A DNA stretch of 64,000 nucleotides from a virus. How positions within the stretch are numbered: the stretch's first letter is position 1; each line of letters begins with the position of its first letter. The position numbers were made by a program, and so were the translations under genes. Under the pieces are notes generated by a model. It did not search any database, had not been told where the DNA came from, and saw nothing but the letters and a program-made list of their open reading frames with translations. This document shows positions 3,343 through 13,796 of the stretch, in pieces. The stretch lies in the UHGV virus genome UHGV-0066004; one strand, written 5' to 3'.

Positions 3343-3418
3343 TGGAGAATCCGAAGGGACTCGAACCCTTATAAACCTGTTTTGCAGACAGGCACATAGC
3401 CATTTCTGTCACGGATTC
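3343..3418 (-). tRNA. tRNA-Cys(GCA)
   Basis: T-arm GGGTTCGAGTCCC, 7-bp acceptor pairing GAATCCG/CGGATTC, anticodon loop CTGCAAA, encoded CCA; hand-folded. Confidence 0.65.
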
Positions 3419-3422
3419 AAAT

Positions 3423-3515
3423 TGGAGGAAGATACCAGACTTGAACTGGTACACCGATTTCTCAGCTACTGGCAGTTTAGCAAACTGCTCCCTTACCTTT
3501 TAGGGTTAATCTTCC
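3423..3515 (-). tRNA. tRNA-Ser(GCT), type II
   Basis: 93 nt, long variable arm, T-arm CCAGTTCAAGTCTGG, acceptor GGAAGAT/ATCTTCC, loop TTGCTAA. Confidence 0.6.
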
Positions 3516-3517
3516 AT

Positions 3518-4252
3518 TTATTTCTGTAATGCGTTCTTCATTTCTGGTGTTGCAATAGTGTCAATTACACCAGTTTTACAAGCATCATCAAACCAGTCTG
3601 GTAAGATACCTGCTAAGAACCCATTGATATTCGTTTTAAGGTACTCTGCAATAAGGGCAGCTTCTTCTTCAATCATCTGCACAACTTCATCTGCATAAGC
3701 TGTAATCTTTGAGATACCTTCATTAATCTTACTGACAGCTTGGTTAGCTAAATCAGAAACAGTATCAAGACCCTTGTCAATAGCGTCTTGTAAGTCACTT
3801 AATACATCGTTAACACTCTCTAGTGTACTGTTAATCGTATCAATAGCTTTTTGACCATATTCTGTAGCAACACCCATAATACCACTGAACGGTGTACAAC
3901 CAACTTGTTCTCCTGCTGCACCCATAACATTGGAATATCCCTTTGCTACCTGCATACGTGATGAAAACTCATCAATAGATTTTTGACCGTAGTCTGTCAG
4001 GGTCTTAGTAGTTGCTGTAGTGCTTGTAAGGCTTGTTGTAAAGCTGTTTAGAAGGACTGTTGTAAGTCCAGCAGCAACAAGCTTATCCTTTACTGTAGGG
4101 TCTGATACAGAGCTAATAGAGCTTACAAGTGATGTAGAGGCAGCTACGGTTCCACCGAGAACTGCTGCACCAGTAATAAGGGGGTTAGAAAACCCTTTAC
4201 CGGTTTTTAAGAGATTGAAAATCTCCTTACCTTGTTCTGTCATCTCTTTCAT
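3518..4252 (-). CDS. Ser/Thr-rich hypothetical protein inside tRNA cluster
   Basis: ORF in track; start trimmed to ATG at 4252 (AAAGGTG SD) because the upstream part overlaps tRNA-Phe. Confidence 0.45.
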   Translation of the reverse strand: MKEMTEQGKEIFNLLKTGKGFSNPLITGAAVLGGTVAASTSLVSSISSVSDPTVKDKLVAAGLTTVLLNSFTTSLTSTTATTKTLTDYGQKSIDEFSSRMQVAKGYSNVMGAAGEQVGCTPFSGIMGVATEYGQKAIDTINSTLESVNDVLSDLQDAIDKGLDTVSDLANQAVSKINEGISKITAYADEVVQMIEEEAALIAEYLKTNINGFLAGILPDWFDDACKTGVIDTIATPEMKNALQK

Positions 4253-4268
4253 TAAGCACCTTTGAAAT

Positions 4269-4345
4269 TGGTAGTCCAGTGGGATTTGAACCCTCTTCTC
4301 ATGTTTTTCAGACACGCGCTTTAACCATATAAGCTACTTGGACTA
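4269..4345 (-). tRNA. tRNA-Phe(GAA)
   Basis: T-arm GGGTTCAAATCCC, acceptor TAGTCCA/TGGACTA, loop CTGAAAA. Confidence 0.6.
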
Positions 4346-4350
4346 TAAAT

Positions 4351-4426
4351 TGGGGTGACCTACGGGATTTGAACCCGTATAGACCATGTTCACAGCATGG
4401 GTCATTACCGTTTATGATAAGGCCAC
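4351..4426 (-). tRNA. tRNA-His(GTG)
   Basis: T-arm ACGGGTTCAAATCCCGT, loop CTGTGAA, encoded CCA. Confidence 0.65.
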
Positions 4427-4457
4427 ATTTAAGGACTCTCGTAAGAATCCTTAGAAG

Positions 4458-4533
4458 TGGCAGCGGCATAAGGATTTGAACCTTAATAAGACAGCTTCAG
4501 AGACTGCTGCATTGCCAGTTATGCTATGCCGCT
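4458..4533 (-). tRNA. tRNA-Gln(CTG)
   Basis: T-arm TAAGGTTCAAATCCTTA, acceptor AGCGGCA/TGCCGCT, loop CTCTGAA. Confidence 0.55.
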
Positions 4534-4538
4534 AAATT

Positions 4539-4617
4539 TGGTACTCCATATCGGATTCGAACCGATACATAACACAGATTTTAAGTCTGGCCTCTCTGCC
4601 AATTGGAGTAATGGAGC
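4539..4617 (-). tRNA. tRNA-Leu-like (anticodon TAA?), atypical
   Basis: Perfect T-arm ATCGGTTCGAATCCGAT, discriminator A, Leu-type D-loop AATTGGCAGAG, loop CTTAAAA, but no long variable arm in my fold. Confidence 0.35.
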
Positions 4618-4619
4618 AT

Positions 4620-4695
4620 TGGCGGGGGATGTTGGAATTGAACCAACTTCTTCGATTTCAAAGACCGAGGTTTTAACCTTGTAAACTAATCCCCT
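4620..4695 (-). tRNA. tRNA-Gln(TTG)
   Basis: T-arm GTTGGTTCAATTCCAAC, loop CTTTGAA, encoded CCA. Confidence 0.55.
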
Positions 4696-4703
4696 TTAAA
4701 TCT

Positions 4704-5261
4704 TTACTTTCTCAGTGGATGAATAAAGAATGCCAACATAACTCTTTCCCTTGAGAATGCTCTTTCTTCTGGGACAACACTTTTTAGTTTCCATCCAATA
4801 TAAATTCTCCAGTAAAATTGTTTACCAAAGATTTTAATTGATGGGATAAAAGCGAATAATCCCCAAGCATTACTGTTCCACATTAGGAGATAACCTGTCT
4901 GATTATCTTCAGGGTCAGAACTTACGTTGATATTACCTTTCCACTTAGTAACATCTTTTACATCTCTTCCTAATACATGGTAAGAGAAGTTATAAGCTTT
5001 GTTTCTCCAGAGCCATCCGACTCTTTGCATGTAGACACCTAGTTTACCAATCCATCTGATATTAGCCCATCTTTTAACGTGACCTTCATCACCATCAATT
5101 GGGTTGTCATATGTCTCCATCCATCTGAACCCGAAAGGTAAGTGTCCTTTCTTCTCACTGTAGAATGGAACTACGAAAGGTGCTAAGATAACTGCTAGTA
5201 TTGCTGCAAGTGGTTCTAGCAAAGCTAAGAAAATCCATGAAGCATATTTTAAGTATCTCAT
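4704..5261 (-). CDS. membrane protein (hydrophobic N-terminus), function unknown
   Basis: 185-aa ORF between tRNA sub-clusters; N-terminal TM-like segment. Confidence 0.5.
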   Translation of the reverse strand: MRYLKYASWIFLALLEPLAAILAVILAPFVVPFYSEKKGHLPFGFRWMETYDNPIDGDEGHVKRWANIRWIGKLGVYMQRVGWLWRNKAYNFSYHVLGRDVKDVTKWKGNINVSSDPEDNQTGYLLMWNSNAWGLFAFIPSIKIFGKQFYWRIYIGWKLKSVVPEERAFSRERVMLAFFIHPLRK

Positions 5262-5500
5262 TGTCTAACCCTCGTAAGGAGGTAAGCATTATTACTTGTT
5301 TCTGAGCTTTCTGGTAACATTGTCTCAAAATTGACACTTTTAAGTTGTCTTCCACCAAAGCAATGACCAATAAATCTTTCTACTTTTATTGGGTCGCATT
5401 CCCATCCGACTTTTAAGAAAATGTGGGTATCTATAGTGGGAACCCTTACAAACTCAATACTATTGGGATTTTCATGTTCAACGACGATTAATGTTTGCAT
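5258..5500 (-). CDS. hypothetical protein
   Basis: 80-aa ORF with ATGA-type overlap onto downstream gene. Confidence 0.4.
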   Translation of the reverse strand: MQTLIVVEHENPNSIEFVRVPTIDTHIFLKVGWECDPIKVERFIGHCFGGRQLKSVNFETMLPESSETSNNAYLLTRVRQ

Positions 5501-5518
5501 AAATTCCTCTTGCTTATC

Positions 5519-5594
5519 TGGCGCAGGATAAGGGATTCGAACCCCTATTAACAGTTTCGTAGACTGTTGCTCTATCCATTTGAACTAATCCTGC
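5519..5594 (-). tRNA. tRNA-Arg(ACG)
   Basis: T-arm GGGGTTCGAATCCCT, acceptor GCAGGAT/ATCCTGC, loop CTACGAA. Confidence 0.65.
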
Positions 5595-5599
5595 AAAAT

Positions 5600-5677
5600 T
5601 GGTGTTCCAAGACGGATTCGAACCGTCACTAATACAAGGTTTGAGCTTGCATCCTCTGCCAATTGGGATACTGGAAC
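5600..5677 (-). tRNA. tRNA-Leu-like (anticodon CAA?), atypical
   Basis: T-arm GACGGTTCGAATCCGTC, D-loop CAATTGGCAGAG, loop CTCAAAC, discriminator A; short variable arm. Confidence 0.35.
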
Positions 5678-5678
5678 A

Positions 5679-5753
5679 TGGTACTCACTAAAGGACTTGA
5701 ACCTTTTTCTTCATCTTGTAAGGGTGGTGTTTTACCATATAAACTAAGCGAGT
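5679..5753 (-). tRNA. tRNA-like gene with disrupted anticodon stem (possible pseudo-tRNA)
   Basis: Good acceptor, D-arm GTTTATATGGTAAAAC and T-arm AAAGGTTCAAGTCCTTT, but I cannot pair an anticodon stem. Confidence 0.3.
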
Positions 5754-5848
5754 GTGAAAGAGGTCTGAAGTTGTGCCGCTAACTCAACTCCGTGGAATTT
5801 GTTACGGTCTTCAGTTGACACCAGCGGTCTTTCACTTGACCTCTGAAT

Positions 5849-5925
5849 TGGTGCTGCTCACAGGACTCGAACCCGCATTTCCATCCTTACAAGGGATGTG
5901 TAATAGCCAATTATACGAAAGCAGC
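5849..5925 (-). tRNA. tRNA-Thr(TGT)
   Basis: T-arm GCGGGTTCGAGTCCTGT, anticodon stem CATCC/GGATG, loop CTTGTAA. Confidence 0.65.
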
Positions 5926-5932
5926 ATTAATT

Positions 5933-6007
5933 TGGAGCATCCAGAGGGAATCGAACCCTCAACCTCAGTTTGGAAGACTGTAATTTTCCCGTTTAAACTA
6001 TGGATGC
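5933..6007 (-). tRNA. tRNA-Gly(TCC)
   Basis: T-arm GAGGGTTCGATTCCCTC, acceptor GCATCCA/TGGATGC, loop CTTCCAA. Confidence 0.6.
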
Positions 6008-6013
6008 ACTAAT

Positions 6014-6089
6014 TGGTGGAGAAGCAGGGAATTGAACCCTGTACTTAAGTTTGCAAAACTTATGTTTTAACCATGTAAACTACATCCCC
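6014..6089 (-). tRNA. tRNA-Ala(TGC)
   Basis: T-arm CAGGGTTCAATTCCCTG, anticodon stem TAAGT/ACTTA, loop TTTGCAA. Confidence 0.6.
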
Positions 6090-6095
6090 AATGTA

Positions 6096-6171
6096 TGGTA
6101 CAGGTGGAGGGAATTGAACCCATCGTCTTACTGATTAAGAGTCAGCCGCATAACCATTTTGCTACACCTGC
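6096..6171 (-). tRNA. tRNA-Lys(CTT)
   Basis: T-arm GGGTTCAATTCCC, loop CTCTTAA; paralogous to the Lys(TTT) gene at 7323. Confidence 0.55.
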
Positions 6172-6178
6172 ATTAATT

Positions 6179-6256
6179 TGGTAGGAGACAAGGGATTCGA
6201 ACCCTCAAACACCAACTTCTAAGGATGGTAGGTTTACCAATTACCGTCAATCTCCC
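6179..6256 (-). tRNA. tRNA-Leu-like (anticodon TAG?), atypical
   Basis: T-arm GAGGGTTCGAATCCCTT, D-loop TAATTGGTAAA, loop CTTAGAA, discriminator A; short variable arm. Confidence 0.35.
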
Positions 6257-6512
6257 ATTAAATCTTTTTAGAGAACTTCTAAGAACCTAAGCAACAAGGT
6301 TCCACAACAAGCTGTAATAACCTTAGAAGCCCTCTAAAAAGACCTAAAAAGGTCTTTGCATAGTCTTGTTTAATCCGGTGACTAGAACCTTTGGAGAGCT
6401 TGATATTATCTCTTCTCCGTGACACATACTAGGTGCTTTACTGTGCTTGTACGACAATACACGAGGGATACCAAAGCAACATCCGAATGAAGCTTGGCTT
6501 TAAACCTTATTA

Positions 6513-6602
6513 GGCGGTAAGTAAAGGAGTCGAACCCTCACCGTATCTCTACAGTGGCAACTGTTTTCAAGACAGTTTGGCTACCATTAGCCGCTACCTA
6601 CC
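6513..6602 (-). tRNA. tRNA-Ser(TGA), type II
   Basis: 90 nt, T-arm GAGGGTTCGACTCC, anticodon stem ACTGT/ACAGT, loop CTTGAAA, long variable arm. Confidence 0.6.
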
Positions 6603-6615
6603 CCTAATAAGACTT

Positions 6616-6698
6616 TGGCATGGGACGGAGGAGTTGAACCCCTTTGAAACGGTTTTGGAGGCCGTTGCTCATGCCTTAGAGTCTTAACATCGTCCCAT
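6616..6698 (-). tRNA. tRNA-like, 83 nt, anticodon unresolved
   Basis: Perfect acceptor ATGGGAC/GTCCCAT and T-arm GGGGTTCAACTCC; internal AACGG/CCGTT hairpin with 9-nt loop; cannot assign anticodon. Confidence 0.3.
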
Positions 6699-6840
6699 AT
6701 TATAATTCGAAGCTTACCGTATTATCTCAACACTGTAAAGCCCCTTCTCAGATTATTTACATGTTCTGGAAAACATGAGATACAGACCACCTCCCTACAG
6801 GAAGACCCGCTTAGGTCGTCTAAGTAATCTGCTAACTAAT

Positions 6841-6917
6841 TGGCACACCCTACAGGATTCGAACCTGTAACTAACGATTTAGAAGACCGTTGCTCTATCC
6901 AATTGAACTAAGGGTGC
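6841..6917 (-). tRNA. tRNA-Arg(TCT)
   Basis: T-arm ACAGGTTCGAATCCTGT, loop CTTCTAA, encoded CCA. Confidence 0.65.
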
Positions 6918-7164
6918 ATTAATCTTTAAAGACTCTCTTAGAAAGCCCTTAAAGATGCCCACCTTATTAATCATACCGTGGGCTAGTACGCCAAATTCTT
7001 TGATGAGGGATTGGAAGACCTCACTGGTGTTTAGCCTATCAAGCTACTGCCAGAAAAACATTGTCGTTTGCATTTATTTTAAATTTGCAAAATAGACGCT
7101 ACGCAACGAAAACTAAGGTTACTATAAAGTAGTCACATCTCAATGTCAACAACTTTATTGAAAT

Positions 7165-7240
7165 TGGTACTGGTAGGTGGAATCGAACCACCGATGTTCC
7201 CTTATCAGGGGAGTGTTATAACCTTCTTAACTATACCAGC
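7165..7240 (-). tRNA. tRNA-Ile(GAT)
   Basis: T-arm GGTGGTTCGATTCCACC, loop CTGATAA. Confidence 0.6.
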
Positions 7241-7241
7241 T

Positions 7242-7318
7242 TGGAGGTTCAGATGGGAATCGAACCCACATTCATAGGGCTTATGAGACCCTTGCATTAC
7301 CTTATCTGCGACTGAACC
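7242..7318 (-). tRNA. tRNA-Met(CAT), elongator-like
   Basis: T-arm TGGGTTCGATTCCCA, loop CTCATAA, G1-C72 paired. Confidence 0.6.
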
Positions 7319-7322
7319 ATAT

Positions 7323-7398
7323 TGGTAGAAGTGGAGGGATTCGAACCCATCGCCTGTCAGATTAAAAGTCTGCTGCATCACCATTCTGCTACACTTCC
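7323..7398 (-). tRNA. tRNA-Lys(TTT)
   Basis: T-arm GGGTTCGAATCCC, loop CTTTTAA. Confidence 0.55.
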
Positions 7399-7403
7399 AT
7401 TAA

Positions 7404-7546
7404 ATTATCTTTGTAGATAAGCTACCCAGACTTGCTTAAGGTCTGTAGCGATGTGCCTTGTTGGGTTTAAATCTAGAATTTACCCTTTCACCCTTTGTGG
7501 TCGCATACTCACAGGTAAGCTTAATAACTTATCTACAAAGATAATT
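7404..7546. repeat. pair of inverted 18-bp hairpin elements (TTATCTTTGTAGATAA / TTATCTACAAAGATAA) about 107 bp apart
   Basis: Exact reverse-complement arms at 7404-7421 and 7529-7546, each arm itself a 5-bp stem hairpin. Confidence 0.7.
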
Positions 7547-7589
7547 ACCAGACCGTTGTTTATCATCTTAAGTGCTACCATTACACCAA

Positions 7590-7680
7590 CTCGACATCTG
7601 CCGAGTGAAGGAATCGAACCTTCGCCTTTTCTTTACCGGAGAAATAGATTGTTTAAGTTTTGCTGTAAACGGTCTTCTGT
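7590..7680 (-). pseudogene. tRNA fragment or pseudo-tRNA (T-arm only)
   Basis: Perfect T-arm GAAGGTTCGATTCCTTC with acceptor-like 3' strand but no matching 5' acceptor strand and no CCA. Confidence 0.3.
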
Positions 7681-7826
7681 AAATTTGTTGAGCCAGACCA
7701 AGTTTAAATTTTCAAAATTAAATTGGCTTGAAATTTCATACGTTCTTGCTGTATTTGGTCTTCTGCTCCTTTAAAGGATACTCGTAAGGACCCTTTAAGG
7801 GAGGGGCTAAATAGCCCTCTCAAAAT

Positions 7827-7904
7827 TGGCGGTTACGAAGGGATTTGAACCCTCATCATCTCCCGTGACAGGGGAGTATTTTAACCAAATTAAACTACAT
7901 AACC
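7827..7904 (-). tRNA. tRNA-Asp(GTC)
   Basis: T-arm GAGGGTTCAAATCCCTT, anticodon stem CTCCC/GGGAG, loop CTGTCAC. Confidence 0.65.
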
Positions 7905-7909
7905 TTTAT

Positions 7910-7997
7910 TGGTGTGCCGTGTAGGAGTCGAACCTACCGAGTCTCAATGACAAGGGATTTACAGTCCCCACCGCTACCATCTACGGGATAACGACAC
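7910..7997 (-). tRNA. tRNA-Tyr(GTA), type II
   Basis: 88 nt, T-arm GTAGGTTCGACTCCTAC, loop CTGTAAA, long variable arm. Confidence 0.6.
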
Positions 7998-8006
7998 ATT
8001 TAAATT

Positions 8007-8083
8007 TGGCGGTTAGTCAGGGATTCGAACCCTGTGCCATTCGCTTAACAGGCGACCGCACATACCTTATATGCTTCCTAACC
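8007..8083 (-). tRNA. tRNA-Asn(GTT)
   Basis: T-arm CAGGGTTCGAATCCCTG, loop CTGTTAA. Confidence 0.55.
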
Positions 8084-8160
8084 TTAATACATTGCCAGAC
8101 CGTGTTTTTTCTTTTATCCGCAAAAAGTATTTTGTTGCTGAATACGGTCTTCTGCAAAAT

Positions 8161-8237
8161 TGGAGGCGGGTGCAGGAGTCGAACCTGCCGATACCATGCT
8201 AATGAGACATGTGAGACGCCCTTTCTCTATACCCGCA
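8161..8237 (-). tRNA. tRNA with CAT anticodon (Met, fMet or Ile2)
   Basis: T-arm GCAGGTTCGACTCCTGC, loop CTCATTA, unpaired 1-72 position. Confidence 0.45.
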
Positions 8238-8327
8238 ATTCTCAATGACCAGACCAAATATCTTCTTTGTCCGATTTCGTGTCAGATGAGTAGATTAAGT
8301 TTGCTGTAATTGGTCTTCTGTCAAAAC

Positions 8328-8405
8328 TGGCGTTCCAGAAGGGATTTGAACCCTCAGATATCCACTTTGAAAGAGTGGTGACTTTACCATTTTGTCTACT
8401 GGAAC
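8328..8405 (-). tRNA. tRNA-Glu(TTC)
   Basis: T-arm GAGGGTTCAAATCCCTT, anticodon stem CCACT/AGTGG, loop CTTTCAA. Confidence 0.65.
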
Positions 8406-8412
8406 ATTAATT

Positions 8413-8489
8413 TGGTCTCTGTTGGAGGACTTGAACCTCCGGCCTTACCGCCCCAAACGGAACGCTCTACCAAGCTGAGCTAAACAGAG
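8413..8489 (-). tRNA. tRNA-Pro(TGG)
   Basis: Canonical D-arm GCTCAGCTTGGTAGAGC, T-arm GGAGGTTCAAGTCCTCC, loop TTTGGGG. Confidence 0.6.
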
Positions 8490-8654: not shown

Positions 8655-10070
8655 TTACCAGATATAACGGTCAATCATTACTGCTTTGAGCATTACACTG
8701 ATTGGGTCAAACTTCTCACCACCAAGCAGAGCTTTTAAAGTAGCTGGAGAAAAACCAGATACCATTGCTACACCGTTATCCTTAACAGACACTTCGCAAG
8801 TACCATTACGGTTTGCTAAGTACCAGAATACCAGTTGAGGCATTTCGTATCCAGCTTTTTTGTACTTACTCTGAATTGCTTCAAAGTTTGTACGACCGTT
8901 AGCTCCATCAACCTGATTGAACTCCATATCGGAGAAGATGATAAGCTTACTTGGCATATCTTTCTGAGTCAAGTTGTTTCTTTTACCTGTTTCAAGAATA
9001 CGGTCAAAAGCTGCTTGTAAGTTAGTTGAGCCATATTCAACGTGTCGCATCACCTGACGATGACGGTTTCGTAAATCACCACTCAGTTCGATGAAGTGAG
9101 GGTTTGTTGAATAAACCATCAACTCATTCTTAAAGCAACCTGTATTACGTTCTGCTACATACAATGCAAGTGAAACACCAATATCAAGAGCAGTAATTGA
9201 ACCAAAATTCACCCAAGACATTGAGCTTGAAACATCAGACATACACAAGATGTTTTCACCCTCTGCCATCCAGTTTGGTAGTGCTTTCCACTGCTCATTA
9301 GCAACATCTGCATTACCATACTTAACAGATTTAATTACATCGTATGGGTAAACAGCACCAGCATTAATCTTAGTCTCACCCTTTGATAAGGACTCGATGT
9401 AAGCTTTGTAGCGTTCTCCATCTTTGCGGTTAAACAGTTTTTGGTAACGTGCAGCAGCAAGTGAAGGAATCTTACTGTAGTCAATCTTACCAAACTCATT
9501 AGCAGAGATTTTTTGCTCAACTGTATCAGATAGTGCAGACAACAGTGTGCGGTACTCTTTCTCACTCAAGTTGGCAAACTTGCAGAAACGTTTTACAAAC
9601 TGCTTATGACGTGGTTTGACTCGTGGTAACCACTTAGCCGCCAAACCTGCTGTTGCAGGGTCTAGTAATGCTGCTTCTAGATGTTTGAAGGCATCTGTCT
9701 CGAAACAAGTACCTACGAAGATTTTGAAGTCATCAAAACGACCAAGTTCTGCAATCTTATCCATAATGCGAAGAACCTGCGTAGGCTCTAAAACTTTGTC
9801 TTCAATCGCTTGAAGTAAAACAGTTCTGAAGGCTTTACGCTCACCCATACCTTCTCGTACATCTCGCATATGAAGCAAAATACGAACTGCAACATCAACA
9901 TCCTCACGCAAAGCTTTGTAGAACAGGTCTGGTAAGATTTCTACGTTGCTACGGCTTGAACCAGCAGCTTTGTAAAAGTCTACAAGAGCAGACATTGATG
10001 AAGTATGGTTTACAGCACCATTTTCAGTTCGACCTGCATGAAGGTGCGCATGTTTAAATAATTCGCTCAT
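8655..10070 (-). CDS. von Willebrand factor A (vWA) domain protein, possibly TROVE/Ro-like
   Basis: 471-aa ORF; C-terminal MIDAS-type DxSxS (DVSSSM) and hydrophobic beta strands (LIIFSDMEF); TROVE assignment is a guess. Confidence 0.55.
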   Translation of the reverse strand: MSELFKHAHLHAGRTENGAVNHTSSMSALVDFYKAAGSSRSNVEILPDLFYKALREDVDVAVRILLHMRDVREGMGERKAFRTVLLQAIEDKVLEPTQVLRIMDKIAELGRFDDFKIFVGTCFETDAFKHLEAALLDPATAGLAAKWLPRVKPRHKQFVKRFCKFANLSEKEYRTLLSALSDTVEQKISANEFGKIDYSKIPSLAAARYQKLFNRKDGERYKAYIESLSKGETKINAGAVYPYDVIKSVKYGNADVANEQWKALPNWMAEGENILCMSDVSSSMSWVNFGSITALDIGVSLALYVAERNTGCFKNELMVYSTNPHFIELSGDLRNRHRQVMRHVEYGSTNLQAAFDRILETGKRNNLTQKDMPSKLIIFSDMEFNQVDGANGRTNFEAIQSKYKKAGYEMPQLVFWYLANRNGTCEVSVKDNGVAMVSGFSPATLKALLGGEKFDPISVMLKAVMIDRYIW

Positions 10071-10915: not shown

Positions 10916-11149
10916 ATGTGTAGTTCCCAATTAGAAATCGCAGATATTATAGATTTATATCAAACTGCAAAGAGTCATGGCTATATAACCTCAATTGGAA
11001 AGAATAGTCACTATGATGCTTTGACTGGAATGTATTTCAGGGCAATGGCTCAATCTAGTGAACAACACTTAGTGGTTTCTTCCAGTGAGTTTACTTCGTT
11101 TCTCTATTGCAGCAAAATTATAAATCGCAGGAGAACTGAAAAATGTTAA
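10916..11149 (+). CDS. hypothetical protein
   Basis: ORF in track, co-directional with downstream cluster. Confidence 0.3.
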   Translation: MCSSQLEIADIIDLYQTAKSHGYITSIGKNSHYDALTGMYFRAMAQSSEQHLVVSSSEFTSFLYCSKIINRRRTEKC

Positions 11150-11733
11150 CAGTAAGTTTTAATTACAATAGTGATGGCTCTGTATCAATTAACTCACCAT
11201 ATGCAAATGACCTACTTAAAGAGCTAGTCAATCAGTGTGAGAGGGGTCTTCACTATGTTCAAAATTCTTTTAAACAGAAGACTATTGCTAATAACTTGAT
11301 GCGTGTAACAGTGACGGCATCGAATCCAAATTATGACTTTGATAGTGAAAGTCCGTACTCATTAGTTGCGCTTGGAGAGAGCAGCCAATTCAAACTTGTT
11401 TGCCACGACTCAGAAACATTCCTTAAGGTATTTTCCAACCTTGTCCATAATAATAAGTGCAGCTACGTTGATGGTAGTGTAAACTTCTACCCAGCAAACT
11501 ATACATGTTTGTTAATTGATAATATGAGAAAAAGTAAGCAAGAACCTACAGAAATTTCATTTGATGTGAACTCTAGTCCAGACGCAGAAACAAGTAAGAA
11601 CTTTGATATGAGTTACGCATTGTCACTCAGTAAGAAATCCGAGTTCATTGATTATGTCAATGGATTTGGTTTTAAGTTTGATGAGAGTATGAATCTTAAA
11701 AAACTTAAGAACCTACTTAAGACCAAAGCTTAA
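11143..11733 (+). CDS. hypothetical protein
   Basis: 196-aa ORF, overlaps neighbour by 7 nt. Confidence 0.5.
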   Translation: MLTVSFNYNSDGSVSINSPYANDLLKELVNQCERGLHYVQNSFKQKTIANNLMRVTVTASNPNYDFDSESPYSLVALGESSQFKLVCHDSETFLKVFSNLVHNNKCSYVDGSVNFYPANYTCLLIDNMRKSKQEPTEISFDVNSSPDAETSKNFDMSYALSLSKKSEFIDYVNGFGFKFDESMNLKKLKNLLKTKA

Positions 11734-11780
11734 GTGTGAATAGGGGCTGATGCCCCTTTAACTATTTATAAGGATATTTA

Positions 11781-12152
11781 ATGAAGGCTAAGAGTGCAAA
11801 AGACTTTTATTGCTTCCTACAATCCTATATCAATTCCGTGAAAAATGGTGAAAGATACAATCTTAATGATGTTATCCCAACACCTTTGACATGGAGACTC
11901 AGTAAATGGCCTGAAGAAGATATTACACCAACAAGAGAACAACGCACCTACAAACCTGAAATCAACATTCCAGATTCTGAGAATCTATTATATCCAATGT
12001 TCCATATTGTTGGTCTTGGAAGATTCCTTATGGATATCCAGTATGTAATTGGTAAAGGTTATAAGGTTAAAGGCATTGTTGTTGGTGATGTATCTCCGCA
12101 TCACAAAGGTTATTTTAGACTAAACGCACATTTAGAGGCTAAAAAGAAATGA
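11781..12152 (+). CDS. hypothetical protein, paralog of N-terminal domain of the Ig-repeat protein
   Basis: Roughly 110-aa region alignable by eye with N-terminus of the next gene (shared FMDLQY-type motif, W-P-E-x-D-I). Confidence 0.5.
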   Translation: MKAKSAKDFYCFLQSYINSVKNGERYNLNDVIPTPLTWRLSKWPEEDITPTREQRTYKPEINIPDSENLLYPMFHIVGLGRFLMDIQYVIGKGYKVKGIVVGDVSPHHKGYFRLNAHLEAKKK

Positions 12153-13282
12153 TTAAAGCAAAGACTTACCCAGACTTCAAAGAGTTTGTGAAGGGCTTCA
12201 TTGCAAATGTAAAGGCTGGTAAGAGATATGATTTTAGAACATATCAAGAGGCTATTTTACCACTCACCTATAGTTCATATTGGCCTGAAGCTGATATTGC
12301 AGAAGTTGAGAAGTTTGACTACAAACCAGACTACAAAGTTCCATTTAGTGATGAGTTGCTTTACAGCGTTGGTGCTCAAATGAGAACGTCTGACTTCTTC
12401 ATGGACTTACAATATGCAATTATCAATGGTAAAGACGTTGATACAGTTTATTGTGAATGGCTGGCAAGAGTTAAACCGTTCTCAATGTTGAATGCTAAGT
12501 TGAAGGATGCTATCAAGCCACCATCAATCACTCAGCAACCAACCAATCAAACAGTAAATGAAGGGGGTACACTTACCCTAATCGTTATTGCAACTAATGC
12601 CACTGGATATCAATGGAAAAAGGATGGTGAGGACATCCCTAGTGCCAATTCTGCAACTTACACAAAACAGTCAGTAGCACCTTCTGACGCTGGTTCATAC
12701 ACTTGTGTTGTATCTGGAGAGGGTGGAACAAGTGTTACCTCAGATGCAGCAACAGTGACTGTGAACGCACTACCTGTGATTACACAACAACCTTCTAGCC
12801 AGACCATCAATGAGGGTGGAAACATCAGCTTGGAAGTGACTGCAACGGGTGCAACGGGTTACCAGTGGAAGAAAGATGGCTCTGACATTCCTTCAGCGAC
12901 AAATGCTACCTATAGCAAGTCTGGTGCTCTGCCAGCAGATGCAGGTTCATACACTTGCGTTGTAACAGGTGCAGGTGGTTCTGTTACTTCTAGCCCTGCA
13001 ACAGTTACTGTGAATGCACTTCCGGTAATCACTCAGCAACCAACCAATCAAGAAATCACTGAAGGTGAGACCTTAACACTGAATGTTGTGGCAACAGGTG
13101 CGACAGGTTATCAGTGGAAGAAAGGGGAGGAAGACATCCTCGATGCAACTACTGCAACTTACACCAAAGAAGGTGCAACCACTGCTGATGCAGGAAGCTA
13201 CACCTGTGTAGTGACTGGCGCAGGTGGCTCTGTAACATCTAATGCGGCAACAGTTACAGTTAACCCAGCAGGGGAGGCATAA
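12149..13282 (+). CDS. protein with three tandem Ig-like domains
   Basis: Three ~83-aa repeats with I-set-like signature (YQWKKDG...ATYT...AGSYTCVV); nucleotide-level tandem repeats. Confidence 0.65.
   Translation: MIKAKTYPDFKEFVKGFIANVKAGKRYDFRTYQEAILPLTYSSYWPEADIAEVEKFDYKPDYKVPFSDELLYSVGAQMRTSDFFMDLQYAIINGKDVDTVYCEWLARVKPFSMLNAKLKDAIKPPSITQQPTNQTVNEGGTLTLIVIATNATGYQWKKDGEDIPSANSATYTKQSVAPSDAGSYTCVVSGEGGTSVTSDAATVTVNALPVITQQPSSQTINEGGNISLEVTATGATGYQWKKDGSDIPSATNATYSKSGALPADAGSYTCVVTGAGGSVTSSPATVTVNALPVITQQPTNQEITEGETLTLNVVATGATGYQWKKGEEDILDATTATYTKEGATTADAGSYTCVVTGAGGSVTSNAATVTVNPAGEA
12520..13272 (+). repeat. three tandem ~250-bp coding repeats (Ig-like modules)
   Basis: Near-identical stretches such as atcactcagcaaccaaccaatcaa recur at a ~250-bp period. 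Confidence 0.7.
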
Positions 13283-13746
13283 TGCAACTCTCAAGAAAAG
13301 GTTTAGAAGCTATTAAGTTCTTTGAAGGTCTTAAGCTGGAGGCTTACGAAGATTCTGCTGGAATCCCTACAATTGGGTATGGGACAATCCGTATTGCTGG
13401 TAAACCTGTTAAGATGGGTATGAGAATCACGGCTGAACAAGCTGAACAGTATCTTCTCGCAGATGTTGAAAAGTTCGTTGCAGCAGTGAACAAAGCCATC
13501 AAGGTTCCAACTTCTCAGAACGAGTTTGATGCACTTGTAAGTGAAACATACAACATTGGCATCACAGCTATGCAGGACTCTACATTTATCAAGCGCCACA
13601 ACGATGGTAATAAGGTCGGTTGTGCAGAAGCTATGCAATGGTGGAACAAGGTTACAGTCAAAGGTAAGAAGGTCACTTCAAACGGCCTGAAAAACAGACG
13701 TAGAATGGAAGCTGACATTTATCTTGACAGTGTATATCCAAAGTAA
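13282..13746 (+). CDS. endolysin, T4-lysozyme-like (GH24)
   Basis: N-terminal FEGLKLEAYEDSAGIPTIGYG matches GH24 catalytic Glu region. Confidence 0.75.
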   Translation: MQLSRKGLEAIKFFEGLKLEAYEDSAGIPTIGYGTIRIAGKPVKMGMRITAEQAEQYLLADVEKFVAAVNKAIKVPTSQNEFDALVSETYNIGITAMQDSTFIKRHNDGNKVGCAEAMQWWNKVTVKGKKVTSNGLKNRRRMEADIYLDSVYPK

Positions 13747-13796
13747 TATCTTCATAGGCTCCTTCGGGAGCCTTTTTATTTTCTAAGGAGAAAACT

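Follow-up and report, generated by a model that had tools for sequence, protein, structure and literature searches.

Two cryo-EM studies from 2025 describe the closest known relatives of the locus analysed here. In the T=9 capsids of phages Sf14 and Bas63, gp20 and Hex-Dec respectively occupy, as monomers, the central position in the 60 pentamer-adjacent hexamers (PMC11821841, PMC12609058). Asp residues line this position, and Arg79 and Arg107 of Sf14 gp20 form salt bridges with Asp221 of the major capsid protein (PMC11821841); for neither phage has density been reported on the other hexamers (PMC11821841, PMC12609058). Presence in virions was established by MS and cryo-EM for Sf14 gp20 (PMC11821841) and by cryo-EM for Bas63 Hex-Dec (PMC12609058). 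The virion MS data of Sf14 are deposited as MassIVE MSV000096931 and its capsid map as EMD-45155. In addition, gp36 of Felix O1, a 31.6-kDa protein adjoining the lysin gp35, was detected in virions by MS with 44% coverage (PMC3185647). A Hoc-like role for the Ig fibre of the Ounavirinae is argued in both cryo-EM papers by analogy with Hoc only, and both already describe variation between 1 and 4 Ig copies (PMC11821841, PMC12609058).

The window analysed here, a 64,000-nt stretch of viral DNA, is the genome of a Felixounavirus, a Felix O1-like myophage, with 93–96% nucleotide identity to Felixounavirus genomes. The locus comprises three ORFs on the + strand: a 123-aa ORF at 11781–12152, a 377-aa ORF at 12149–13282 and a 154-aa ORF at 13282–13746, the last encoding a phage lysozyme-type (GH24) endolysin (PF00959, E 1.8e-40; phrog_7). 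An earlier note, made from the letters of this DNA, had placed a gene pair immediately upstream of a lysin, and its ORFs and coordinates proved exact. The first two genes overlap by ATGA, the stop of the second and the start of the endolysin share TAATG, and each of the three ORFs has its own Shine-Dalgarno sequence. The unit reads from a paralogue of the capsid-binding domain (CapBD) through Hex-Dec to the endolysin, as overlapping genes that are probably translationally coupled.

The unit is closed by a strong intrinsic terminator at 13756–13773 (+ strand; 7-bp stem with 5 GC pairs, then a T-run), whose wV8 counterpart is annotated as a terminator. On the other side, between an upstream 196-aa ORF and the paralogue, a short GC hairpin, GGGGC-TGAT-GCCCC followed by TTT, was read from the sequence at 11743–11756 (+ strand). 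It probably acts as a weak intrinsic terminator: the equivalent wV8 site is annotated as Rho-independent, and the terminator consensus scan did not call it because its T-run is short. A sigma-70 promoter scan of the region performed no better than on shuffled sequence. A late-promoter-like motif 5' of the paralogue, CTATTTATAAGG, has 13 matches when as many as 2 mismatches are allowed, where 7.9 would be expected; at least as many occur in 4 of 100 shuffles, and the placement of the matches is patternless. A programmed −1 frameshift joining the paralogue to Hex-Dec was also considered, since T AAA AAG stands three codons ahead of the paralogue stop and Hex-Dec lies in the −1 frame. It was rejected: the heptamer is unconserved, its position reading GAAAAG in wV8 and AATAAA/AAGAA in Mooglevirus-type loci, and the product of about 46 kDa is unreported.

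The Hex-Dec gene lies directly 5' of the GH24 endolysin, apart from the structural module; the terminase is encoded on the opposite strand at 1294–2910, and a 26-tRNA array separates it from the locus. The lysin-side position that the earlier note had found unusual is thus real. It is kept across the Ounavirinae, and the Bas63 paper already remarks on the location outside the structural module (PMC12609058).

The 377-aa protein is Hex-Dec, a Hoc-like capsid decoration protein of hexamer centres that is already known. It matches Bas63 Hex-Dec (PDB 9NCF chain S; phmmer E 3e-295) and Sf14 gp20 (PDB 9C2D/9C3A chain S; E 7e-168) over residues 1–364/371, with 70% identity to gp20 overall. Its CapBD, residues 1–122 (12149–12514, + strand), contains both anchors, Arg79 and Arg107 aligning at the same positions as in Sf14 gp20. 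Structure prediction of the N-terminal domain, which the earlier note had advised, gave an AF2 model that superimposes on 9ncf_S with TM 0.81–0.83 at 98% identity. The earlier note had not named capsid hexamer decoration as the function, which was solved structurally in 2025.

From 88–98% CapBD identity we infer that Hex-Dec of the window binds the capsid as in Sf14 and Bas63. On this view a CapBD monomer would plug the acidic centre of each of the 60 pentamer-adjacent (facet-edge) hexamers, anchored by Arg79 and Arg107 to Asp221, and three acidic I-set Ig modules would extend away from the capsid as a flexible fibre. If T4 Hoc is a guide, this fibre presumably adheres weakly to glycans or other surfaces, or mediates particle–particle contacts. 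A search of the literature for a Felixounavirus Ig protein with an experimental link to mucus found none, and a paper on a Citrobacter rodentium phage mentions neither Ig nor decoration proteins. Phage STGO-35-1 is a siphovirus, and the paper on it has no bearing on this locus.

Many database records tell a different story. The label of phrog_3995, shared by many such records, is ‘tail protein’, and matches to the major-tail-protein PHROGs 158, 853 and 3575 occur in the Ig region as well, as if the Ig modules decorated the tail tube in the manner of lambda gpV or T5-like major tail proteins. These matches, however, are limited to the Ig modules (residues ~96–295), whereas two independent cryo-EM structures (PDB 9C2D, 9NCF) place the N-terminal domain of the orthologue in capsid hexamer centres, and the Bas63 paper explicitly calls the ‘tail protein’ label wrong (PMC12609058). 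A tail role is already refuted by these solved orthologue structures, and we give it next to no credence. Since most records mis-annotate Hex-Dec in this way, the correct annotation is the main value of the present identification.

The Ig region consists of three modules on the + strand, all assigned with Pfam: module 1 (positional module A, I-set/Ig_3; residues 125–208, 12521–12772), module 2 (positional module B; residues 209–291, 12773–13021), which is missing from two-Ig variants, and module 3 (terminal module D; residues 292–372, 13022–13264), beyond which the ORF ends with PAGEA and its stop. Ig_3 (E 6e-34), I-set (1e-25) and Ig_2 (2e-26) each match in three stretches, at residues 124–206, 209–289 and 292–372. 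The earlier note was therefore right to count three Ig-like modules. Its description of them as nearly identical tandem DNA repeats did not hold: the units, of 252, 249 and 243 nt, are pairwise 72–73% identical in amino acids and 66–69% in nucleotides, with a longest exact common stretch of 13–25 nt. The wording is rejected because Tandem Repeats Finder (minimum score 30) finds no array of ~250 nt; a repeat search at the locus recovered only a 41-nt core at 68–80% identity. The modules are old and diverged, at about 67% nucleotide identity.

The expectation that repeat number varies was borne out, in agreement with the published variation. Relatives carry 1, 2, 3 or 4 modules across 28 loci, in Hex-Dec forms of 210/211, 294/298, 377 and 461 aa; this distribution comes from IMG/VR loci, the CapBD homologue search having given almost only 210-aa one-Ig forms. 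Since orthologues are virion-borne (PMC3185647, PMC11821841, PMC12609058), as the virion proteomics proposed in the earlier note was meant to reveal, and copy number varies, the protein is neither absent from virions nor invariant in repeats, the combination that would have spoken against that note. What we add to the published variation is chimeric modules: A/D and B/D chimeras occur with four different breakpoints. These indicate that diverged modules have repeatedly undergone unequal recombination in frame, the process by which module number would change. They imply that fibre length has been reset repeatedly, despite only ~67% DNA identity between modules.

The upstream 123-aa protein (pI 9.4; phrog_4463) has no Ig modules. 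Its counterparts are Felix O1 gp37, wV8 gp42, Sf14 gp21 and VpaE1 ORF40c. That it duplicates the N-terminal domain of its neighbour, as had been claimed, is supported by BLASTP (36% identity over 119 residues against residues 1–125 of the 377-aa protein, E 4e-18), by cross-matches between PHROGs 3995 and 4463, and by a sequence match to 9ncf_S (E 5e-12). Its AF2 model, of moderate confidence (pLDDT 62.7), has the order of secondary-structure elements of the CapBD model, and its only significant Foldseek matches in the PDB are 9c2d_S and 9ncf_S (TM 0.58, probability 1.0). A loop, P35-L36...W43-P44-E45-x-D47-I48 (low-confidence in the model), and an F-x-M-D-x-Q-Y helix with F82, M84, D85, Q87 and Y88 are invariant in both families. 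The anchors are replaced: in the paralogues, Gly stands invariably at the Arg79 position and His or Gln at the Arg107 position, with Arg at the latter in one distant paralogue. The net charge is reversed, the pI of 9.4 comparing with 5.5 for Hex-Dec. A Pfam search gave no match, and no nucleic-acid-binding or membrane motif was recognised.

Its dN/dS of 0.13 (mean dS 0.86), against 0.04 for the CapBD, indicates that the paralogue is under purifying selection. An intact copy, of 122–124 aa, is present in 233 of the 253 phage records, across Felixounavirus, Mooglevirus and phiSUSP1/CHB7-type phages, and a divergent metagenomic lineage only ~50% identical also keeps the gene. The Erwinia (Kolesnikvirus) and LPML1-type outgroups lack it. 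Among 1.84 billion representatives the family forms 12 clusters confined to Ounavirinae-like phages, so that it co-occurs with one capsid type. In 19 records, from viable E. coli, Salmonella and Shigella phages, the gene is pseudogenised through a single inherited decay, with the start codon lost, a ~220-nt deletion and frameshifts. Phages REP9, mio and SP116 are natural examples without the paralogue.

No trace of the protein appears in the virion data that we consulted. Felix O1 gp37 is missing from the 17 virion proteins identified by MS (PMC3185647), VpaE1 ORF40c from the VpaE1 virion protein list, and Sf14 gp21 from Table 1 and the text of PMC11821841; the upstream paralogue goes unmentioned in both cryo-EM papers (PMC11821841, PMC12609058). 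The wV8 ‘proteome’ is limited to the tail fibre. Absence from these MS lists is negative evidence, short of proof of absence. Taken together, these data describe a gene that arose long ago by tandem duplication of the CapBD alone and is functional, selected and dispensable, with no detectable stable presence of its product in the virion.

What the duplicate does can be weighed from the same observations. A second structural decoration protein, plugging the 20 true-threefold hexamers that Hex-Dec leaves unoccupied, would suit a basic protein of CapBD fold facing an Asp-lined centre (PMC11821841), the more so as it lacks R79 and R107, whose geometry explains in the Sf14 paper why gp20 avoids those hexamers (PMC11821841). 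Against this, both cryo-EM studies are without density on other hexamers, the Sf14 table omits the paralogue, and so do the Felix O1 and VpaE1 virion MS lists, where proteins of 9.7–13.7 kDa were seen. Together with its pseudogenisation in 19 viable phage records, this makes a second decoration protein very improbable. That same pseudogenisation, inherited from one event, and selection weaker than on the CapBD might instead mark a duplicate that has no function and is being lost. We hold this to be very improbable, given a dN/dS of 0.13 at a mean dS of 0.86, an intact reading frame of 122–124 aa with its own Shine-Dalgarno in 233/253 records, and retention in Mooglevirus, in phiSUSP1/CHB7-type phages and in the ~50% identical lineage.

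A harder case is neofunctionalisation, in which the ancestral fold no longer binds capsid protein and has another partner, be it nucleic acid, a host factor or a component of lysis. The pI shift from 5.5 to 9.4, the replacement of both capsid-anchoring Arg, the absence from virion lists, the co-transcription and probable coupling with the endolysin, and a dN/dS three times the CapBD value all lean this way. Against it, neither a Pfam match nor a nucleic-acid-binding or membrane motif was found, the family is limited to Ounavirinae-like phages, and the loop and helix residues invariant in both families suggest a shared binding mode; a change of partner is therefore possible but somewhat unlikely. 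Our best guess, held tentatively and short of even confidence, is that the paralogue still recognises capsid-protein hexamers, its action being either transient or away from the mature virion. Proheads could be its target, or it could limit Hex-Dec loading by competition. A more specific version, in which a display-less ‘decoy’ CapBD acts only in assembly, as a prohead hexamer cap or as a Hex-Dec competitor tuning the number of Ig fibres, strikes us as speculative and, as it stands, unlikely. If true, it would mean that the paralogue regulates capsid decoration, something that we did not find described for any phage. Should the paralogue prove to modulate decoration or assembly, the engineering of Felix O1-type therapeutic phages would gain a cheap handle on display density.

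For the locus as a whole, we consider it very likely that the full explanation is Hex-Dec with an Ig fibre, recombining modules and a functional duplicate CapBD gene upstream. The paralogue is its one undescribed part; the rest is ordinary and already explained.

Among known systems, the locus can be compared with T5 pb10 (PDB 5LXK, 8ZVI), whose Ig domain is homologous (E 7e-12 and 1.5e-11) and single, as opposed to three in the 377-aa protein. No CapBD similarity to pb10 was found, because the matches (5lxk_A, 8zvi_a) cover only Ig residues 132–289. T4 Hoc is alike in mode, a monomer at hexamer centres displaying an acidic Ig-like string, an analogy drawn in both cryo-EM papers. The Hex-Dec CapBD is larger than the Hoc domain, topologically distinct and pseudo-C2 symmetric, with minimal sequence conservation (PMC12609058). 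The domain order is also reversed, the capsid-binding domain being C-terminal in Hoc and N-terminal here, and the Hoc-like PHROG matches (2973, 4069, 3945) are limited to the Ig region, residues 121–370, with no sequence similarity to Hoc beyond it; Hex-Dec thus works like Hoc but stands outside the Hoc family. To our knowledge, T4 has no stand-alone CapBD paralogue.

The nearest relatives are the two solved orthologues. Bas63 Hex-Dec (Escherichia phage JohannRWettstein, 9NCF chain S) shares the layout of CapBD and I-set Ig modules and the genomic position, and has four Ig modules against three here, module C, which lies between B and D where four are present, being the one missing from the window. 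Sf14 gp20 (9C2D/9C3A chain S) belongs to another genus, Mooglevirus, and its Ig modules have diverged to about 60% identity; it nevertheless has three of them, a CapBD about 88–90% identical to that of the window and the same R79 and R107, and its genes gp21-gp20-gp19 stand in the order found here: paralogue, Hex-Dec, lysin.

The 377-aa protein (12149-13282, + strand) is securely identified as Hex-Dec (gp20), the Hoc-like capsid decoration protein in which the domain that binds the capsid (CapBD) is N-terminal and precedes a row of Ig modules. A PDB sequence search returned chain S of 9NCF ('Immunoglobulin-like domain protein', 460 aa; E 3e-295) and of 9C2D/9C3A ('tail protein', 372 aa; E 7e-168), which belong to the reconstructed capsids of phages Bas63 and Sf14 (PMC12609058, PMC11821841). 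The window protein is 70% identical overall to Sf14 gp20 and keeps both R79 and R107. The structure prediction of the N-terminal domain suggested in the earlier note was run, and the AF2 model of the CapBD (pLDDT 76.5) superposes on 9ncf_S with a TM of 0.81-0.83 and 98% identity. The protein is a member of the Ounavirinae Hex-Dec/gp20 family, with which it agrees in every testable feature. Hex-Dec was known before, with its structure solved. The interpretation in that note was partly right but incomplete.

In the T=9 capsids, Hex-Dec (Bas63) or gp20 (Sf14) occupies as a monomer the central position of those hexamers that lie next to pentamers at the facet edges, and its Arg79 and Arg107 salt-bridge to the major capsid protein at Asp221; the true-threefold hexamers showed no density, and the flexible Ig modules were not resolved (PMC12609058, PMC11821841). 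According to the same reports, gp20 was detected in Sf14 virions by MS, 'tail protein' is a wrong annotation carried by most genomes, the gene lies >10 kb outside the structural module, and Felixounavirus/Mooglevirus relatives have one to four Ig modules (PMC12609058, PMC11821841). Felix O1 gp36 ('tail protein', 31.6 kDa), which adjoins the lysin gp35, was likewise found in virions, with 44% coverage (PMC3185647). By extension from the orthologues, for which this was shown, the CapBD would plug 60 hexamers at their acidic centres, with the Ig modules protruding, and the resulting fibre might mediate weak, Hoc-like adhesion or aggregation. In both cryo-EM papers this function is only an analogy with T4 Hoc, and no experimental test of it was found in the literature.

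Hex-Dec is the middle gene of a three-gene unit, each ORF of which has a Shine-Dalgarno sequence. The anatomy described in the earlier note, with the N-terminal domain duplicated as an upstream gene and an endolysin next, holds: the 123-aa paralogue (11781-12152, +), whose stop overlaps the Hex-Dec start as ATGA, aligns with residues 2-119 of Hex-Dec at 36% identity (E 4e-18), and the 154-aa endolysin (13282-13746, +), whose start overlaps the Hex-Dec stop as TAATG, matches PF00959 (Pfam, E 1.8e-40). A short GC hairpin (11743-11756, +), annotated as a terminator at the homologous wV8 site, precedes the unit, and a strong intrinsic terminator (13756-13773, +) follows it. The region shares 93-96% DNA identity with Felixounavirus genomes (LF82P5, KhF3, heid, wV8; 241 matching records). 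Between the structural module, at its terminase end (large terminase 1294-2910, -), and the Hex-Dec region lies a 26-tRNA array (3343-8489, -); the Hex-Dec gene is therefore ~9 kb distant from the packaging/structural module's edge. Such tRNA arrays are typical of Felix O1-like phages. Directly adjoining the array is a 471-aa protein (8655-10070, -; phrog_850, 'RNA-binding protein'; DUF2828 in the Sf14 annotation). A 196-aa ORF (11143-11733, +; phrog_4034, no Pfam match) lies directly upstream of the CapBD genes, an arrangement shared even by two outgroups, Erwinia phage Ep030 (ORF of 205 aa) and LPML1 (207 aa); this conserved synteny may reflect a functional link to decoration or lysis. A fusion of paralogue and Hex-Dec by -1 frameshifting was also considered, since Hex-Dec is in the -1 frame and a dnaX-like AAAAAG occurs in the last codons of the paralogue (12136-12152, GCT AAA AAG AAA TGA); the site is absent at the same place in wV8 and Mooglevirus-type loci and was judged coincidental.

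Pfam recognizes three stretches of Ig_3, I-set and Ig_2 (E 6e-34, 1e-25 and 2e-26 for these families respectively), corresponding to module A (residues 125-208, 252 nt), module B (209-291, 249 nt) and module D (292-372, 243 nt). The earlier note had counted three modules correctly, but had taken them to be nearly identical, encoded by ~250-bp tandem DNA repeats. They are in fact old and diverged, sharing pairwise 72-73% of amino acids and 66-69% of nucleotides, with longest exact common stretches of 13-25 nt, and Tandem Repeats Finder reported no array over them. The idea of expansion and contraction nevertheless fared well. The complete gene was compared across 28 loci, 27 of them in IMG/VR and one in wV8: four encode one Ig module (210/211 aa), 11 encode two (294/298 aa), 11 encode three (377 aa; the window and wV8 counted twice) and two encode four (461 aa). 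The modules are position-specific: each of those in the window (A, B, D) shows 88-97% DNA identity to the module at the corresponding position of most relatives and only 64-72% to modules of other positions. Most two-Ig forms consist of A and D, and in the four-Ig forms B and D are separated by an additional module, C. Several loci contain chimeric modules, switching from A to D at ~90 nt (L018), ~150 nt (L020, phage SP116) or ~200 nt (L019), or from B to D at ~90 nt in the second unit of L017. These different breakpoints are direct evidence of repeated in-frame unequal recombination between modules and therefore support expansion and contraction despite the low DNA identity. Such recombination would reset the fibre length. 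Copy-number variation itself is already published, and the chimeras are a modest residual novelty.

Two of the IMG/VR contigs (L004 and L014, 4001-5386) carry the four-Ig, 461-aa form outside Bas63. The statement that four Ig modules occur in Bas63 only was based on 18 ICTV species (PMC12609058) and is therefore valid just within those species. At the other extreme, Hex-Dec of Shigella phage Z31 (2498-3072 of its locus) has an in-frame stop after residue 134, within a partly deleted Ig module, so that a CapBD-only Hex-Dec is predicted in a phage that also lacks the upstream paralogue. Either a sequencing error or a naturally occurring form without Ig modules could account for the truncation; three metagenomic proteins of 121-149 aa (P0059, P0081, P0088) are similarly truncated, on short contigs.

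The paralogue, whose Sf14 counterpart is gp21, goes unmentioned in both cryo-EM papers (PMC12609058; main text of PMC11821841, where neither gp21 nor gp19 is named), and this undiscussed CapBD-only protein is a second, modest novelty. It matches 9ncf_S by sequence (E 5e-12), and the only significant PDB matches of its AF2 model (pLDDT 62.7, pTM 0.60) are 9c2d_S and 9ncf_S (TM 0.58, probability 1.0), with the same helix order and terminal beta-hairpin as the CapBD model. It is intact, with a length of 122-124 aa, in 233 out of 253 phage records, which cover Felixounavirus, Mooglevirus and phiSUSP1/CHB7-type phages, and its gene always immediately precedes Hex-Dec, overlapping it by 4-8 nt; an 87-kb metagenomic phage keeps the same triad with a paralogue only ~50% identical.

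What the paralogue does is a matter of weighing. A decaying duplicate is the least probable reading: 19 records, including REP5-12, Tf, mio, Z31, fBSPA4, fKMPT1, P54 and SP116, do share one decayed remnant (start codon lost, ~220-nt deletion, frameshifts), which points to the gene having been lost once, in the ancestor of a group of viable phages, and makes it dispensable, while elsewhere its dN/dS is 0.13 at a mean dS of 0.86. For comparison, dN/dS is 0.04 in the CapBD, 0.13 in Ig module 1 and 0.06 in the lysin. A low-copy structural protein at the true-threefold hexamers is also improbable. The fold would suit such a place, but the published virion data speak against it: Felix O1 gp37 is missing from the 17 MS-identified proteins though proteins of 9.7-13.7 kDa were detected (PMC3185647), VpaE1 ORF40c is not among the published VpaE1 virion proteins, and Sf14 gp21 is not in the table of the Sf14 paper (PMC11821841).

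The capsid anchors have also changed. The R79 column holds an invariant Gly in paralogues and the R107 column His or Gln (Arg in the distant homologue P0099), and the pI is 9.4 (+5.8 at pH 7) vs 5.5 for the CapBD. Neofunctionalization toward another partner would accommodate these changes, and we regard it as possible but rather doubtful; P35, L36, W43, P44, E45, D47 and I48, in a loop of low confidence in both AF2 models, are invariant in both families, as is the F-x-M-D-x-Q-Y helix. We tentatively favour a paralogue that still recognizes capsid-protein hexamers but whose action would be transient or take place away from the mature virion: it might work on proheads, or compete with Hex-Dec and so limit its loading. 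This reading fits best and reconciles selection, the common fold and the common invariant loop with the missing virion signal, the lost anchors, the reversed charge and dispensability.

Ep030 (Kolesnikvirus) and LPML1-type Ounavirinae have one CapBD gene directly upstream of lysozyme, without a paralogue, which places the origin of the duplication inside the enterobacterial branch. With 12 clusters at 50% identity in 1.84 billion representatives, the CapBD family is a very small one. The display module joined to it has been swapped from lineage to lineage, which indicates domain shuffling onto a fixed capsid anchor. The module is I-set in enterobacterial phages and the homologue P0103, Big_2 in Ep030 (L032, 2486-3100) and P0102, Big-like in P0104 and a Lys-rich disordered tail in P0105; the CapBD of LPML1 (L033, 2501-3466) is likewise fused to a differing module, and two unclassified beta-rich segments also occur among the modules of these lineages. 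L033 (OK283618.1) is recorded as 'Listeria phage LPML1' with host Listeria monocytogenes, is classified in Ounavirinae and has Felix O1-like synteny (tRNAs, DUF5681-like gene, CapBD gene, lysozyme); its host assignment looks doubtful.

Of the known decoration systems, T5 pb10 has the same domain order as Hex-Dec and a homologous Ig domain (E 7e-12), with no CapBD similarity in the PDB sequence search. T4 Hoc has the reversed domain order and a distinct CapBD topology, and the Hoc-like PHROG matches of the 377-aa protein are confined to its Ig region. Hex-Dec is therefore not a member of the Hoc family, although the two are alike in working.
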